This document shows, one piece after another, positions 4,424-21,541 of a stretch of 60,198 nt of DNA. The position numbers and the translations under genes are program-made. Under the pieces are notes generated by a model. The model saw only the letters and a list, made by a program, of their open reading frames with translations. It was not told the origin of the DNA and made no database searches. The DNA is taken from NCBI GenBank assembly GCA_018175315.1, contig GCA_018175315.1_4769.1. One strand, 5' to 3'. The DNA is from a phage. Each line of letters starts with the position of its first letter. The stretch's first letter is position 1.

Positions 4424-5131
4424 ATGAATATTAATCAACAAGCTCCCGAGTCCCGTTCTAAAGAAAACGATATGTATTTAGACGTGCATTCGGTATTCTC
4501 TACCATTCAGGGTGAAGGTCCATTCTGCGGCCAACCTGCTGTATTTGTGCGTCTTGCTGGGTGCAACCTGCAATGTCCTGGCTGTGATACGGATTATACT
4601 GTTGGTCGTAGTCTTTATCATATTGTCGATATTATGCGTTTAATCGAAAGCCGTAAGCTGGAATCGGGCAATAGCACCTCACTTGTGGTTATCACTGGGG
4701 GTGAACCGTTCCGTCAGCAAATTAACCCGTTTATTGAACAACTGTTATCGCGCGGCTATTTGGTGCAAATTGAAACTAATGGGTCTATGCCTTTACCTAA
4801 GAACTTTTCCCAGTTACCTGTAATTGTATGTAGTCCCAAGACCTCAAAGATTCATCCTTCTGTGCTGCGCCGCGCTAATGCATTTAAATATGTACTTAAA
4901 GCGTGCTGTGTAAACGTGGAAGATGGTTTACCTCTTCAAGCATTAGATCATCAAGCTACGCCATTTATCGCTAGACCTCCGAAGGGTTTCAAGGGTAAGA
5001 TATATTTACAGCCAATGGACGAGCAGGATGAAGACCTTAACCACAGTAATATCCAAGCCGTTGTCCAAAGCTGTATGAAACACGGTTACACGTTGCAGCT
5101 TCAGGTTCACAAATATATCGGAGTGGAATAA
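4424..5131 (+). CDS. queE: 7-carboxy-7-deazaguanine synthase QueE (radical SAM)
   Basis: Radical-SAM CxxxCxxC motif (CNLQCPGC) near N-terminus; GAGG RBS; sits in operon with queC/queD/folE. Confidence 0.85.
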   Translation: MNINQQAPESRSKENDMYLDVHSVFSTIQGEGPFCGQPAVFVRLAGCNLQCPGCDTDYTVGRSLYHIVDIMRLIESRKLESGNSTSLVVITGGEPFRQQINPFIEQLLSRGYLVQIETNGSMPLPKNFSQLPVIVCSPKTSKIHPSVLRRANAFKYVLKACCVNVEDGLPLQALDHQATPFIARPPKGFKGKIYLQPMDEQDEDLNHSNIQAVVQSCMKHGYTLQLQVHKYIGVE

Positions 5132-5385
5132 TGCGTGTGTTAAGCCAGGTTGTGCATACTAAAGATGTTAATTTTTGTGGTGTCACTTTAACCGTTCCAA
5201 GTCGAGTGGATTATCTGGCAGCCGACAAGGATGGGAATGTTTGGGGATATGAAGCAATTCCTCCAGAACTTAGCCATCGCTTTGATAGATGGTTGCCAGC
5301 AGATCCGGAAGCTTGCGAGTACGATGAAATAGCTGATGTAGATCTTGAAGGCTTAGACTGGACTCAAACATTAACGGAGGTTTAA
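5131..5385 (+). CDS. hypothetical protein (inside deazaguanine operon)
   Basis: 84-aa ORF, GGAG RBS, ATG overlaps queE stop (translational coupling). Confidence 0.5.
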   Translation: MRVLSQVVHTKDVNFCGVTLTVPSRVDYLAADKDGNVWGYEAIPPELSHRFDRWLPADPEACEYDEIADVDLEGLDWTQTLTEV

Positions 5386-5598
5386 ATGATCACTTTGGAA
5401 GAAGCGAAACAGCATCAGGAAATGATCACTGAACTGGTAGAAAAACTTAATTCTTCAATTGCCCACGCTACTATGCAGGGCGTGCATGTAGAATTAGATA
5501 TTAATTACGTTAGCACAATTGGAGCGCGCAATCACCCAATTGTGATGTCAAACGTAACAATTAACCCTTGTGATATTAAAGGTGAAGTAAATGAATAA
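5386..5598 (+). CDS. hypothetical protein (inside deazaguanine operon)
   Basis: 70-aa ORF with GGAGG RBS immediately after upstream stop. Confidence 0.45.
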   Translation: MITLEEAKQHQEMITELVEKLNSSIAHATMQGVHVELDINYVSTIGARNHPIVMSNVTINPCDIKGEVNE

Positions 5599-6313
5599 AT
5601 TAGATAAAATGGTATTCCCTGTAAAAAATCATAACTCCGCCGTTGTCGTCCTGTCTGGCGGCCAGGACAGTGTGACCTGTTTGGGTCTTGCACTTAATAA
5701 CTATGACAAAGTCTACGCTATTGGTTTTGCATACGGTCAACGTCATAACATTGAGCTGGCTTGTGCTAATCAAATCTGTAAAGAGCACGATGTCCCGTTT
5801 GTTGTCTTTGAATTACCTGCTTTGAAACAGATTGGTAATAGTGCTTTAATCGGGAACGAAGGGGATGTTAACGAACATCACGAACAGCACAACAACCTTC
5901 CGGCAAGCTTTGTACCAAACCGTAATGCTCTTTTCCTGACTACCGCGCACGCCTACGCGCAGAAGGTTGGAGCCCGATATGTGGTTACAGGCGTTTGTGA
6001 AACAGACTATAGCGGTTATCCGGATTGCCGCCGGCAGTTTGTAGACATGCTTGAAGCTACATTAAACGTTGCATATGAAACAGATATTTATTTCGTTACC
6101 CCGCTTATGCGTTTAAATAAAGCAGAAACGTTTGAGCTGGCGGATAAGGTTGGTTTCTTAACCACAGTGATTGAACAGTCCCATACTTGCTATAATGGCG
6201 TCCGTCGCACTCTGCATGACTGGGGATATGGTTGCGGTGAATGTCCTGCGTGCAAACTGCGTGCTAAAGGGTACAGCGAATTTATGGATAACGCTTACAG
6301 CAAACACGTTTGA
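5591..6313 (+). CDS. queC: 7-cyano-7-deazaguanine (preQ0) synthase QueC
   Basis: PP-loop SGGQDS; C-terminal Zn-binding cysteines (CYNG...CGECPAC). Confidence 0.85.
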   Translation: MNKLDKMVFPVKNHNSAVVVLSGGQDSVTCLGLALNNYDKVYAIGFAYGQRHNIELACANQICKEHDVPFVVFELPALKQIGNSALIGNEGDVNEHHEQHNNLPASFVPNRNALFLTTAHAYAQKVGARYVVTGVCETDYSGYPDCRRQFVDMLEATLNVAYETDIYFVTPLMRLNKAETFELADKVGFLTTVIEQSHTCYNGVRRTLHDWGYGCGECPACKLRAKGYSEFMDNAYSKHV

Positions 6314-16369: not shown

Positions 16370-17077
16370 TTAGCAGCAGCCCGTCGGAGGAGTCGGAGGA
16401 GTTGGCAGTTTAAAGTTAACTAACTGCTCAACCTGATTGATCTTACAGGTAAGACCAGCCGTCTGCGCCAACTGAGAGTTTGCAAAGCGAGCTTCCTGCA
16501 ACTGGGACTTCAGGTCACAGATCAGAACTGCTTGCGCCTGTGCGTGCTGGTCACGGATCAGCGCACGGGTAGCTTCAGCTTGACGCTCGATGTTCAGGTT
16601 GGTTTCGCAGCAACACTTCTGAGCTTCTAACTGAGCCTGGAAGGAGCGGGTAATGTTAGCTGCTTCGTTGTTACACAGAGCCGCGAGCACTTGGCTTGTG
16701 CCGCTCTGGATCTGCGTGTTCAGACCAGCAAAACCCTGAACGGAAGCCAGCATGTTTTGAGTGTTCTGCTGAGTAATACCGTTATAAGTAGAAGCAGCGG
16801 AGCGCTCAACAGTCAGGTTAGTACCGTTCTGCCCCTGAATGGTCTGAAGAGTACCGTTGTTGATAGCTTGCAGAATTGCGTTGGTGTCAACAGAAGCCTG
16901 CACTTCCACCGGACCAGCGAAGTTACCGCGACCACCCCAACCACCATTGCCGCCCCAACCATTACCGATCCAGGAACCAATTAAGCCACCGATCGCGCCG
17001 CCGATACCAGCCGCACCAGCTTCACCACCGAAACCGTCGCCACCAAGATTAGTAGGTAAAAGAGTCATGTCAGACAT
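16370..17077 (-). CDS. Gly-rich protein (Gly-rich N-terminus, Q/N/T-rich middle, Cys-rich C-terminus)
   Basis: GGAG RBS before ATG at 17077 (ORF track begins at an upstream alternative start 17206); GGDGFGGEAGAAGIGGAIGG...GNGWGGNGGWGG; ends PTPPTPPTGCC. Confidence 0.55.
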   Translation of the reverse strand: MSDMTLLPTNLGGDGFGGEAGAAGIGGAIGGLIGSWIGNGWGGNGGWGGRGNFAGPVEVQASVDTNAILQAINNGTLQTIQGQNGTNLTVERSAASTYNGITQQNTQNMLASVQGFAGLNTQIQSGTSQVLAALCNNEAANITRSFQAQLEAQKCCCETNLNIERQAEATRALIRDQHAQAQAVLICDLKSQLQEARFANSQLAQTAGLTCKINQVEQLVNFKLPTPPTPPTGCC

Positions 17078-17206
17078 AGGAAAATCTCCATATATGGATT
17101 TGTTAAGCGGATGTAACCAACTGGTTACGAAGTAAAGCATACCCCTTAACATGCTTTTTACAATGATCCAAATGTAAAGATTTTGTAAATTGGGATTGAC
17201 AGTCAA

Positions 17207-17235
17207 TAAAAAGCGCGCCCGAAGACGCGCTTGAA
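17207..17235 (-). terminator. rho-independent terminator downstream of tail-fibre gene
   Basis: Minus strand stem AAGCGCG / CGCGCTT followed by TTTTT; adjacent perfect palindrome ATTGACAGTCAAT at 17195-17207. Confidence 0.5.
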
Positions 17236-17246
17236 GTTAGATGTGG

Positions 17247-19013
17247 TTATGGAAGATCTGCAGTCTGTGAATTGTTTAGATTAGAAATGAGTTCTTTTAG
17301 TTTCTTATTATCTTCTTCCAAAGATTCAATCCGTTTTATAAGTTCTTGCACCACATGCATCGTATCCAAAAGCATAGGTGTTGTGTCAAGTTCCTTTTGT
17401 TCAACAATCTCTCCTGGATTACTGCCAACATATTTACGCGTCTTAACATATAAAGGCTCAACAACCTCTGCTTGCTGTGCAATCACGCCATGCCGAACTC
17501 GATTTTGTTCGTCATTGTCATAAATGAACTCTACAAATTCCAGACCTTGGATATTAGAGTATGACTTTTCAACTCCAACAGGGGCGATGCCGTGTTTTAC
17601 ACGTGAGTCAGAAGTACCATTTTTTGTATAACTAAAGTTCCCGTAATCAGTTGAACAATTTATTTGCCCATCAATGTCAAAAAAGTAACGGCAGAATTTT
17701 CCAGCGTCTCCACCGATAACTACACAGGCTTTGCCAAATGCGTTATTACCTGGAATATACATGTGATATCCAACCTTTGTTGGATATCCATTAGGTCTGA
17801 TGCCGCCGATAGAATAGCCGCGCACCAGCGTATCTGATCCACTCTCGATTGCCACCCTGTCCATTCCGTTAGTGGTCAAGTTAGGCCCGTCGGCATCCGT
17901 TATCCCGTTCCACGTACCAATAGGCGTATACATGCGGAATGGGTTGACCTTCCCTGACTGTCGAAAGTCTACCGTACCATCATCATAAAACTTGTAGGAG
18001 TGTTTAGCGGAGCCTTCAGATTCTATAACAGCCGCAGTATAAGAACCCCAGGTAGTATCAGAGTATAGACGAGCAAACCGCTTACCTGCTGGGTTGGAGT
18101 ATTCCGATACTACTTTACCACCACGAACGGAGGTATTCTGCGGAGGTGTGCTACTATCTGCATTCTTAACACTCCACGAGGTATTCGCAGCTACGAACCC
18201 ACCAGAAGCACGAATTACCCACACACCGACAAAGTTTCGTGTAAGAATCTCATCTGTTGATGCTCCGTAAATTTGACTTGAACGTGAGGCGTCAAAATTT
18301 AGCGTGTTACAACGGCCAGTAAGCGGTGTCTTACCTGCGGGGATGACATCCCCATCCCCGTTAGGAAAAAGCATATTATCAGAAAAGAATGCACCTCTAG
18401 CAGCAGAACCGAATACCTGAGCATACGTACCTCCTGAGTAACTAGGAACAGCACCAGTAATATTAGGTGCAGCAGATTCAAATAGCTGACCATTTGCATT
18501 ACTATTCCCGCCATCACCACGACCATAAAGAGCGCGTATTGATCCCTCCTGCACCCCATTCTTGTCTGGAACACGAAAAGTTGTTGTTCCATTTCCTGAT
18601 GAGTATTTACCACGCTGGAATTTATCAGCTAACCAAACTGAATCATCTATAGCCCCAACCATTTGTGCATACGCCCAGAGTTCAGGCCAATCCGCTCGAT
18701 TCAATAACTGTCCATCAGAAACGACTTCATACGGTTGAATATATGCACGACTGTCGCGTAAGTGGAAGTCACCAACACCATAATTCATGACGCCATTCAT
18801 AGTGGGTCCAACTATACCAGTATTAATCTTATTTTCTACCCAACGTTTGGTTGCAGCATCATAGTCCATAACAGGATCCCCAGCAAGCGGAGTAGATCCA
18901 ATAGGTCGCACGTTTAACCACGCTGCTGCGCGGTCCGCTAAGTCGCTCAGGTTTGCACTCTTTTTAAGAGAGTTCTTGATGTCAGCCGGAATATTTGTTA
19001 CTTGCTTAGTCAT
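17247..19013 (-). CDS. tail fibre protein with C-terminal intramolecular-chaperone-like domain
   Basis: GGGAG RBS before ATG 19013; Gly/Ser/Asn-rich beta-type composition; C-terminal SDSRVKHG resembles the S-D-x-R-x-K self-cleavage site of fibre chaperone domains, followed by coiled-coil tail. Confidence 0.65.
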   Translation of the reverse strand: MTKQVTNIPADIKNSLKKSANLSDLADRAAAWLNVRPIGSTPLAGDPVMDYDAATKRWVENKINTGIVGPTMNGVMNYGVGDFHLRDSRAYIQPYEVVSDGQLLNRADWPELWAYAQMVGAIDDSVWLADKFQRGKYSSGNGTTTFRVPDKNGVQEGSIRALYGRGDGGNSNANGQLFESAAPNITGAVPSYSGGTYAQVFGSAARGAFFSDNMLFPNGDGDVIPAGKTPLTGRCNTLNFDASRSSQIYGASTDEILTRNFVGVWVIRASGGFVAANTSWSVKNADSSTPPQNTSVRGGKVVSEYSNPAGKRFARLYSDTTWGSYTAAVIESEGSAKHSYKFYDDGTVDFRQSGKVNPFRMYTPIGTWNGITDADGPNLTTNGMDRVAIESGSDTLVRGYSIGGIRPNGYPTKVGYHMYIPGNNAFGKACVVIGGDAGKFCRYFFDIDGQINCSTDYGNFSYTKNGTSDSRVKHGIAPVGVEKSYSNIQGLEFVEFIYDNDEQNRVRHGVIAQQAEVVEPLYVKTRKYVGSNPGEIVEQKELDTTPMLLDTMHVVQELIKRIESLEEDNKKLKELISNLNNSQTADLP

Positions 19014-19015
19014 AA

Positions 19016-19291
19016 TTACGCCCACTCCCTTAAAGGTTGCTCAAGAATAACACTGTGGTTACTGTACTGGGTAAAATCAAACGAGTCATCAATAACCCTT
19101 ACGTTCACATAATACCCTTCATTTTGAATATATGTTGGTTCGTCTGATAAACTTTCAACTTCTGTAAAGGTGTATCCTATTACATCAAGCATTATTTGGT
19201 TTTGCAAAGTTTCATTGCCTTCCCAATCAATGACCACAAGAAAATCTTCAAACGCCTTCTTGTCCTTAAATTTCATAGTTAAGTCTTTCAT
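19016..19291 (-). CDS. hypothetical protein between tail-fibre genes (possible fibre assembly factor)
   Basis: 91 aa with GGAG RBS; start overlaps upstream stop. Confidence 0.45.
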   Translation of the reverse strand: MKDLTMKFKDKKAFEDFLVVIDWEGNETLQNQIMLDVIGYTFTEVESLSDEPTYIQNEGYYVNVRVIDDSFDFTQYSNHSVILEQPLREWA

Positions 19292-21417
19292 ACAGACTCC
19301 TTCAATTCACGGTCAGTCAATGCTTTATGCCATACTCGAAGATTTCTGACATGCCCGAATAAATGGCGCTGCCCCGTTGTTGTCTGACCGCCAATACGAA
19401 TGGTTGCAGAGCTTTGAATATAGGACCATGTGGCTTTCTTTTCGCTGGATATACGCCCGTTACTTACTGCACATGTCATCTGATCTTCCTTCACACGCAT
19501 CCCCATAACCATTTTTTCAAGCGATGCGTTTTCGTTTACCCGTCTGTTAGCTCCTCCAATATCGCAATAAGGAAATCCGTCGTAATCTGCTGAAGAACCG
19601 AAGCCAAGAATAATAGCCGCTCCGGTTTGATGACCGCCGGTATCAAAAACACGCGGCGCTGCATTTGGCGTTTTATACCAGTTCTTATGTACCTCACAAA
19701 GAACCGTAAAAGGAAGATTATAAAGATTATTCTTAATTGGAACTGTAACTATATCGCTTGCGCGGGTCGCCGCCGTCGCTCCTGATATAATAAAAGATGA
19801 TACACAAGGCCCATCTTCTACTTGTGGGGTGGCCAGATAAATATAGTCACCAGATACGGTTGCCCCGCTCTGCTTAGGAGAATACTGTATCTGAGAGCCT
19901 ATTTTTAACTCCCCATCAATTGCCTGAATTGTTGCCTCTGCAAAAATCCATCCGGTAGCTTCGTCCTTTCTGACTCTCGCTGTAATCCTTGAGGCAGCAC
20001 CGCCTGTCATATTAATTTCAAGCGTTTGTGTATCAATATACGCATCACCAAGAAAAGTTGTTGCGCTACCGTCATATTTATCAAACCGGATACGCAACCT
20101 TACCTGCAGTTCTGTTTTAAAACGACATGAGGTTGTCACGTATTTATTATAGCCTGAGACATCAACTGACTTTGTTGCAGCAATTGATGCCATATTAATG
20201 GCTGAGGTTTGCCCAATCAGAGAATCGTTACAGACGAACTTTCCATAGGTAAAACCAAAACTATCCTTCCCGGTTTCGGGAACATCCATATTTGACGATC
20301 GCCCCCAACTGGCAGGGTTTTCCGAATTGAGCATGTAGTTTGTTCTTTGCCCCTCAATAAGCAGGCCATCACGTTCAAATCGTGGCTCGTCAACTTCAGC
20401 AACGGTTAATACTCCTGATTTATTAATGTATGTTGCACCTGACGCCCGTTTGAAATCCACAACCTTATCGGACGGCATTTTAATAACATCATCACCTACA
20501 GTTATTTGCTTATAGCCTGGTGCAAACCCCGCTAACATATCCAGTGAGTCGTTGAAAGGAATCCATACATCAGGGAAAGGTTGAATTTCTGGAGCATTGT
20601 TAGCAGCAGATTCCGCACGGTCTGCTTCCGTCTTTGCGCGGTCTGCGTCGTTTTTAGCTGCGGTTGCGCTTGTACCTGCGTTACCTGCTTGTTGTCCCGC
20701 TTCGGTAGCGCTATTACTTGCTTGTGCAGCAGACGCGGCAGCGGCGTCTTTTAGCGCGGTAGTTTCGGACACAGCAGCGTCCTTAATTGCTTGCGTCTCG
20801 CTTATTGCGCTATTCTTAATAGTCTGTGTATCCGACTTTAATTTTTCAACATCCTTTTTGAGATTTGTTATTGTGGTTACAGCTTGGGTTGCAGTGTTAG
20901 CAGAGCCCGCAGCACTGGACTGGGCTTGTTTAGCTGCATCCGCGTTAGTTTTAGAATCATTCTTATATGTAAGCGCTTCACTTGCAGAAGAAGCAGCCGC
21001 CGCTTTACTATTACGTGCGTCGGTAGCATCTGAGTTTGCTGCGGCAGCAGAGCGTCCAGCTTGCAGAGCATATTCTTCAGAGTTAGCCACAAGTTGCTGG
21101 ACTTGTTTGATAACATCTGGAGTTAATTCTTCTGGAGCCCAGTTAATTAAATATCCGTTCAGCGAACCTTCAGGACTGTCACCATAAATAACAATCTCCC
21201 CAGCTTTATAAGGCTCAACACCTTGAGGTCCGATGATTACTTTATAACGACCAGTCTGGACAGTTACATTATACGCACCGGATCCGTCAGTGCGGAATAT
21301 AGCCTCACTACCATTAAGAACGGTAATTGTGTTCCCTTTAGCAATAAGAGCAACTGTAGCGTTGATGATTGGTTTATTTAAACCATCCATCAGAATACCA
21401 TGTAGACGAGTTGCCAT
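19288..21417 (-). CDS. tail fibre / receptor-binding protein with C-terminal lectin (LamG)-like domain
   Basis: AGAGGT RBS before ATG 21417; beta-rich N-terminal domain, Ala/Ser-rich coiled middle, C-terminal region lectin-like by composition. Confidence 0.6.
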   Translation of the reverse strand: MATRLHGILMDGLNKPIINATVALIAKGNTITVLNGSEAIFRTDGSGAYNVTVQTGRYKVIIGPQGVEPYKAGEIVIYGDSPEGSLNGYLINWAPEELTPDVIKQVQQLVANSEEYALQAGRSAAAANSDATDARNSKAAAASSASEALTYKNDSKTNADAAKQAQSSAAGSANTATQAVTTITNLKKDVEKLKSDTQTIKNSAISETQAIKDAAVSETTALKDAAAASAAQASNSATEAGQQAGNAGTSATAAKNDADRAKTEADRAESAANNAPEIQPFPDVWIPFNDSLDMLAGFAPGYKQITVGDDVIKMPSDKVVDFKRASGATYINKSGVLTVAEVDEPRFERDGLLIEGQRTNYMLNSENPASWGRSSNMDVPETGKDSFGFTYGKFVCNDSLIGQTSAINMASIAATKSVDVSGYNKYVTTSCRFKTELQVRLRIRFDKYDGSATTFLGDAYIDTQTLEINMTGGAASRITARVRKDEATGWIFAEATIQAIDGELKIGSQIQYSPKQSGATVSGDYIYLATPQVEDGPCVSSFIISGATAATRASDIVTVPIKNNLYNLPFTVLCEVHKNWYKTPNAAPRVFDTGGHQTGAAIILGFGSSADYDGFPYCDIGGANRRVNENASLEKMVMGMRVKEDQMTCAVSNGRISSEKKATWSYIQSSATIRIGGQTTTGQRHLFGHVRNLRVWHKALTDRELKESV

Positions 21418-21541
21418 TTTTACCTCTTGTTTCGCAGAGTTGATCAATTAATGGATGCACTATGGCATATAAATATGGTAAATTAAATTAGAATATAAAA
21501 CAATATTGTCTATCATCTTTAACCACATTGTTGGAGTAATT

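Follow-up and report, generated by a model that had tools for sequence, protein, structure and literature searches.

The subject here is the last part of a lateral tail-fibre protein encoded in a 60,198-nucleotide stretch of phage DNA (NCBI GenBank assembly GCA_018175315.1, contig GCA_018175315.1_4769.1), the whole of which is called the window below. The genome is that of a Seuratvirus-type (Queuovirinae) coliphage, a siphovirus, and is ~93% identical to Dru_SM1 and VogelGryff. Over its first 25 kb, where the relatives include Escherichia phages Dru_SM1, VogelGryff (Bas25) and vB_EcoS_SA80RD, identity to Seuratvirus genomes is 93-95%, with ~80-86% of the length covered. The lateral-tail-fibre locus is one of two hypervariable regions in Queuovirinae genomes (BASEL study, PMC8594841). 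A first-pass annotation had placed at 17247-17560 a fibre C-terminus with a motif, S-D-x-R-x-K, like the self-cleavage site of fibre chaperones. The sole long open reading frame (ORF) across that interval is 17247-19025 on the minus strand, 592 codons from a GTG at 19025, and the last 121 residues of its product are very probably a Peptidase_S74 intramolecular chaperone that aids trimer folding and then cuts itself off. The features of the locus, with what each rests on, are as follows, residue numbers here and throughout being counted from GTG 19025 (a start at the ATG at 19013 would shift them by -4).

17247 to 19025, minus strand: lateral tail-fibre gene, with its TAA stop at 17247-17249 (ORF list, PHROG 6921, start-codon context)
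17250 to 17612, minus strand: C-terminal intramolecular chaperone, a Peptidase_S74 domain, residues 472-592 (Pfam, profile against the PDB, AlphaFold2 (AF2), Foldseek)
17595 to 17612, minus strand: the S-D-S-R-V-K motif, residues 472-477 (conservation; alignment with 3gud, 7dc3, T5 pb1 and MyRF)
17259 to 17384, minus strand: long C-terminal alpha-helix, residues 548-589 (DSSP on the models, heptad count)
17613 to 18068, minus strand: beta-rich distal tip, residues 320-471 (AF2 full-length model; place directly before the chaperone)
18069 to 18971, minus strand: shaft/collar-like module, residues 19-319 (phmmer against the PDB, 8hqz_d, domain score 378.6 bits)
17211 to 17232, minus strand: intrinsic-terminator-like hairpin (terminator scan and sequence)

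The peptide on which the first-pass annotation drew, TSDSRVKHGIAPVGVEK, does exist, as residues 471-487 (window 17565-17615), with SDSRVK as residues 472-477. However, the interval assigned to it takes in residues 489-592 and the stop codon only, leaving the motif just outside, and the protein cannot be said to end with the motif as 121 residues follow, counted from its Ser. Those residues, Ser472 to Pro592, are the domain, and it reaches the stop codon. A search for Peptidase_S74 similarity, the check that had been proposed, was positive: Pfam PF13884 (Peptidase_S74, ‘Chaperone of endosialidase’) matches residues 472-524 with 33.6 bits (E 5e-8), the curated gathering score being 22 bits, and the match covers profile positions 1-54 of 58 and begins exactly at the motif Ser. 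With residues 462-592 as query, an exhaustive HMMER search gave 351 homologues at E<=1e-3; it was used instead of a word-indexed search, which had yielded 11 proteins only. Domain position and the S-x4-K spacing were counted in the 159 of the 351 that were retrieved (n=160 with the query). In these 159 the domain is C-terminal, with a median of 4 residues past the aligned end, and S-x4-K is near the domain start in 153 of the 160 sequences. Lys477 and Gly513 are the sole invariant positions of a 52-sequence domain alignment, in which Ser472 is at least 90% conserved. In a 36-sequence full-length alignment, too, Lys477 never varies and Ser472 is conserved in at least 90% of the sequences, and SDxRxK is the majority consensus there.

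When a profile made from 52 homologous C-terminal domains was run against the PDB it matched DT57C LtfA (8hqz_d, E 2.6e-39), the ICA domain of MyRF (7dc3, E 1.8e-15), a phage tail fibre (8jov, E 7e-13), the S16 long-tail-fibre protein gp37 (6f45, E 3.5e-9) and the neck-appendage chaperone domain (CIMCD) of GA-1 gp12 (3gud, E 7e-6). Ser472 aligns with the first residue of the crystallised GA-1 chain (SDERHK), and with the Ala of the S587A mutant in the MyRF structure. Single-sequence phmmer against the PDB, whether with the full protein or with its C-terminal 132 residues, found DT57C LtfA only. Could the motif nevertheless be a chance occurrence in an unrelated C-terminal coiled coil? The bare pattern S-D-x-R-x-K was found once in the window's six-frame translation, where ~0.67 occurrences are expected, and on its own it is weak evidence. 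However, the evidence from profile, fold and conservation spans the whole 121-residue domain, and the family profile run against the same translation gave E 7.7e-45 on the fibre ORF with no other match in the window and no second Peptidase_S74 domain there. Chance is left with a negligible probability, being refuted by the Pfam, PDB-profile, Foldseek and six-frame profile results.

The AF2 model of residues 462-592, built on the domain alignment, has a mean pLDDT of 92.2. Its sole significant PDB neighbours in Foldseek are the MyRF ICA domain 7dc3 (TM 0.67, probability 1.00, root-mean-square deviation 3.5 Å over 120 columns, 22% identity) and 3gw6, the chaperone of the K1F endosialidase (probability 1.00, 10-12% identity in the structural alignment); TM to the latter is only 0.45-0.52 because the tentacles of that endosialidase, endoNF, are much longer and 3gw6 includes stalk residues. 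The full-length model gave the same two structural families and nothing else significant. In the models a helix (485-493), two strands (497-500 and 511-514), a second helix (516-522) and a beta-hairpin (527-533/540-546) precede the long C-terminal helix, which DSSP places at positions 87-128 of the domain model and at residues 548-585 of the full-length one. As modelled, this combination of alpha/beta module, beta-hairpins and long C-terminal helix is the fold of the chaperone family. Over residues 548-589 the heptad pattern has hydrophobic residues at 8 of 12 a/d positions. The corresponding helix makes the trimer core in T5 pb1 (PMC4690869) and in MyRF (PMC8326128), and by analogy with them the helix here is presumed to be the trimeric coiled coil of the chaperone. 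The first-pass claim of a coiled coil after the motif is right as regards the long heptad helix (548-585/589) but not as regards its place, ~75 residues of alpha/beta domain, with helices and two beta-hairpins over residues 485-546, coming first. The identity of the domain, the conservation of its dyad, its terminal position and its predicted fold are established computationally.

What, then, would the domain do on a fibre? Ser472 (codon 17610-17612) and Lys477 (17595-17597), spaced as S-x4-K at the N-terminal border of the domain, are predicted from the alignments to be a catalytic dyad. They correspond to the proven dyads MyRF S587/K592, endoNF S911/K916 and T5 pb1 S1264/K1269, and with their conservation this bears out the suggestion that S-D-x-R-x-K is here an autoproteolytic-type site of a chaperone; the wider reading of the segment as an intramolecular chaperone domain is upheld by family profile, homologue conservation and predicted fold. 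In T5 pb1, Ser1264, activated by Lys1269, cuts the Thr1263-Ser1264 bond after folding, and S1264A blocks cleavage; uncleaved pb1 fails to compete for the O-antigen receptor, and therefore cleavage unmasks the tip (PMC4690869). In MyRF, S587A and K592A each abolish cleavage of P586|S587, and these residues equal endoNF S911/K916 (PMC8326128). By analogy the scissile bond of the present fibre is predicted to be Thr471|Ser472, with Lys477 as general base. The residue before Ser472 is Thr (codon 17613-17615), as in T5 pb1, which agrees well with this prediction, as does the S-D-x-R-x-K consensus.

From these counterparts we infer that the protein trimerises, that it is cleaved and at which bond, and that the fragment is released and the tip unmasked. 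Three nascent chains would be put in register by the C-terminal helix, residues 548-589, as a three-stranded coiled coil, and the alpha/beta part with its beta-hairpins would template the folding of the upstream beta-rich tip, residues ~320-471. After correct trimer folding Lys477 would activate Ser472, with every chain cutting its own Thr471|Ser472 bond. The 13.7-kDa chaperone trimer would then depart, leaving a ~50-kDa mature fibre that ends at Thr471 with its receptor-binding tip exposed. The calculated masses are 63.9 kDa for the precursor, 50.2 kDa for a mature fibre of residues 5-471 and 13.7 kDa for the C-terminal fragment. That residues 320-471 are the receptor-binding part of the mature fibre is presumed because the same place, directly before the chaperone, binds O-antigen in T5 pb1 (PMC4690869). 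The full-length AF2 monomer, of moderate to low confidence (pLDDT 70, pTM 0.38), has beta-strands over residues 299-466, themselves of moderate confidence; with this model Foldseek gave no informative fold match for tip or shaft, only weak similarities to T4 gp34 and gp12.

Several points weigh against this account of the domain. Neither T5 pb1 nor endoNF was reached by the domain profile against the PDB at E<=1, endoNF being recovered through its fold alone, and S-x4-K is absent in 7 of the 160 family sequences. The domain can evidently exist without cleavage, given the minority of members without the Ser, though that is not relevant to the present sequence, in which the dyad is intact. Literature searches found no virion proteomics or fibre-processing study of a Seuratvirus or of Queuovirinae. 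Folding sensors, which come from a neighbouring subunit and go with an upstream triple-beta-helix, are known in endoNF (Arg897) and in T5 pb1 (Arg1250, Asp1239) (PMC4690869), and an upstream sensor Arg was not identified here, the tip not being alignable to T5 pb1 or endoNF and the model being a monomer. Directly upstream of the dyad are predicted beta-strands, residues 399-466, with Arg446, Asp450, Asp452 and Asp460 among them, in a single-chain model only. MyRF, whose stalk barely contacts the ICA domain, shows that such a sensor is not universal (PMC8326128).

Could a genuine Peptidase_S74 chaperone be retained on the fibre, either as an uncleaved C-terminal cap or cleaved yet still bound? 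The few family members without the catalytic Ser, together with the failure to locate in the fibre a neighbouring-subunit Arg sensor of the endoNF/T5 type, would fit with that, and part of the work on Alteromonas phage fibres reportedly concerns ‘transient chaperone caps’. However, the dyad is intact in this protein, and Ser472 and Lys477 are where the family is most conserved; in all characterised members with an intact dyad (endoNF, GA-1 gp12, T5 pb1, MyRF) cleavage follows folding. Retention would, moreover, probably disable the fibre, because in T5 the uncleaved chaperone blocks competition for the receptor (PMC4690869). Retention is improbable, and a self-removing chaperone is preferred.

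A different question is whether the 592-residue protein is a structural fibre at all or, instead, a free-standing assembly chaperone for the 719-residue lateral tail fibre whose gene (19288-21447, minus strand) is upstream. The gene of the 592-residue protein comes after the main fibre gene, a frequent place for genes of trans-acting fibre chaperones, and the 719-residue fibre has no Peptidase_S74 domain of its own, by Pfam scan or by the family profile against the six-frame translation. Also, the label ‘putative lateral tail fiber chaperone’ is attached to VogelGryff bas25_0024, which is 96% identical in its C-terminal domain. Against this, residues 19-319 share homology with the shaft of a structural fibre, DT57C LtfA, matching its residues 530-830, collar-like segment included. 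The best PHROG families of the protein are all ‘tail fiber protein’ over its full length (PHROG 6921, E 2.4e-202, residues 15-578), and homologues bear the domain at the end of fibre proteins of 400-1300 residues. A Peptidase_S74 domain acts in cis on the polypeptide that carries it (PMC4690869, PMC8326128). As for the VogelGryff label, it most likely echoes the Pfam description ‘Chaperone of endosialidase’. It is probably misleading, because the architecture of bas25_0024 (5001-6167) is a conserved N-terminus, a tip and a cis-acting Peptidase_S74 domain, i.e., probably a fibre with an intramolecular chaperone. That the 592-residue protein is a separate assembly factor is accordingly very unlikely. 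The same low likelihood is given to the domain having some further role, in which, with cleavage or release delayed or conditional, it might be a removable cap that masks the receptor-binding tip, or might help in trans to build the 719-residue fibre into a two-protein lateral fibre, serial or branched. A trans chaperone of the Tfa/gp38/gp57A type, small and shaftless, was also considered and rejected, for there are 592 residues here with fibre-homologous shaft and tip over the whole length; no fibre-chaperone family in Pfam or PHROGs matched the protein.

With the intramolecular chaperone as the preferred reading, how does the fibre compare with known systems? Its closest solved or characterised relative is LtfA of the T5-like phage DT57C (8hqz chain d). 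The likeness extends to the chaperone region, residues 464-571 of which match LtfA 951-1067 by phmmer, and both phages have a two-gene fibre locus; autocleavable pfam13884 domains with predicted cleavage sites were published for DT57C LtfA and LtfB in 2016 (PMC4728585). However, DT57C is a 110-kb T5-like phage and the present one a 60-kb Seuratvirus, the motif of LtfA is S-G-I-E-Y-K rather than S-D-S-R-V-K, the tip (residues ~320-465 here) is divergent, and the N-terminal 529 residues of LtfA, including its tail-attachment domain, are missing from the 592-residue protein. Tail attachment here sits on the separate 719-residue protein, in the form of a phage_tail_N domain. Orthology with T5-type pb1/LtfA was rejected, as the N-terminal ~80-residue tail-attachment domain (LtfC collar) is absent and only LtfA 530-1075 could be aligned; what the 592-residue protein has in common with LtfA and pb1 is distal modules.

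T5 pb1 (Ltf) resembles the present protein in having a C-terminal domain of ~130 residues (1264-1396) on a siphovirus lateral fibre (PMC4690869), in its Thr-Ser scissile bond and S-x4-K spacing (Thr1263|Ser1264 and Lys1269, compared with the predicted Thr471|Ser472 and Lys477), and in an alpha/beta part that bears beta-hairpins and precedes a coiled-coil C-terminal helix, which in the present case is modelled. Yet the domain profile detected no sequence similarity to it at E<=1, T5 pb1 structures were absent from the Foldseek lists of both the domain and the full-length models, the beta-hairpin ‘tentacle’ is short in the model (strands 527-533 and 540-546), and the upstream tip gave no match to the bullet-shaped receptor domain of pb1. 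K1F endosialidase (endoNF, 3gw6) and GA-1 gp12 (3gud) are the founding Peptidase_S74 members. Both use a Ser/Lys dyad, S911/K916 in endoNF (PMC8326128), but endoNF has much longer tentacles, and the proteins that these two domains serve are a tailspike enzyme and a neck appendage, not a thin lateral fibre. The best structural neighbour, the ICA domain of MyRF (7dc3), has an S-x4-K dyad proven by mutagenesis (PMC8326128). However, MyRF, the myelin regulatory factor, is a eukaryotic membrane-bound transcription factor whose cleavage frees an N-terminal DNA-binding part, and it informs on fold only and not on biological role.

Upstream of the chaperone the fibre has a patchwork history. The collinear VogelGryff homologue, of 388 residues, is 71% identical to the 592-residue protein over residues 1-71, 84% over residues 280-592 and 96% in the chaperone. 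A module of ~208 residues, 72-279 (18189-18812), is present in the 592-residue protein and in DT57C LtfA and not in that homologue. On the alignments this is a clean insertion or deletion of a fibre-shaft module that a 60-kb Seuratvirus shares with 110-kb T5-like phages. At the DNA level the fibre gene has partial relatives in T5-like phages, in Wifcevirus myoviruses and in smaller siphoviruses, a scatter that, judged from the sequences, is typical fibre mosaicism. The closest genome overall, Dru_SM1, has a shortened fibre allele of 369 residues (Dru_SM1 16448-17557), equivalent to residues 76-422 here, that ends in unrelated residues and is without the N-terminus and without the entire chaperone domain. 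Should folding depend on the chaperone, the Dru_SM1 allele may not work, and a pseudogene or a sequencing or assembly artefact is possible.

To turn to the surroundings of the gene, where does its translation start? The ATG at 19013, which would give 588 residues, is 2 nucleotides past the stop of an upstream 91-residue ORF and has an AAGGGAG Shine-Dalgarno sequence 11 nucleotides upstream. The GTG at 19025 would give an overlap of 10 nucleotides with that ORF and is how VogelGryff is annotated. Because of its position just past the ORF stop and of its Shine-Dalgarno sequence, the ATG is the likelier true start. The 91-residue ORF (19016-19291, minus strand) is between the two fibre genes and is conserved, falling in a PHROG family of unknown function (1361, E 5e-31); its product may be an adaptor or an assembly factor of a two-protein fibre. 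The 719-residue lateral tail fibre has, besides its phage_tail_N attachment domain (Pfam), an Ala/Ser-rich repetitive segment and a C-terminal region, residues 332-578, that resembles the head spike fibre Rcc01080 of the Rhodobacter capsulatus gene-transfer agent (6tb9, E 1.8e-7). By analogy with the branched two-gene LtfA/LtfB fibre of DT57C (PMC4728585), the 592-residue protein probably joins the virion via the 719-residue one.

On the other side, 15 nucleotides past the fibre stop, is the hairpin at 17211-17232, with a 9-bp stem containing 6 G-C pairs, a TTCG loop and then TTTTTATT; by its sequence features it is a strong terminator that would close the fibre transcription unit. Directly after it, in 17160-17205, are promoter-like elements of the form TTGACT...TACAAA ahead of a 278-residue ORF, and together the terminator and these elements suggest a boundary between transcription units of the fibre gene and that ORF. 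The ORF itself (16370-17206, minus strand), directly downstream of the terminator, was assigned to a PHROG family of unknown function (9288, E 8e-130) and to no Pfam family. Its N-terminal third is Gly-rich (GGDGFGGEAGAAGIGGAIGG...GWGGNGGWGG), its middle is Gln/Ala-rich and helical-looking, and it has several Cys, including CCC, with a C-terminal PTPPTPPTGCC.

A chaperone domain of this kind is already known and is routine phage biology, recognised by standard Pfam annotation. By tblastn the domain was found in 575 phage records, mostly labelled ‘tail fiber protein’ and including that of Seuratvirus CAjan, and phage SR02 has a homologue that already bears the name ‘Peptidase S74 domain-containing protein’. 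There is no conceptual novelty, Peptidase_S74 domains being well documented on the fibres of T5-like and many other phages. What is refined is the annotation: the mature fibre is predicted to end at Thr471, at ~50 kDa, and its last 121 residues are predicted to be absent from virions. This is relevant to proteomics, to fibre-swapping designs and to expression of the receptor-binding tip, for which a construct must keep the chaperone for folding.

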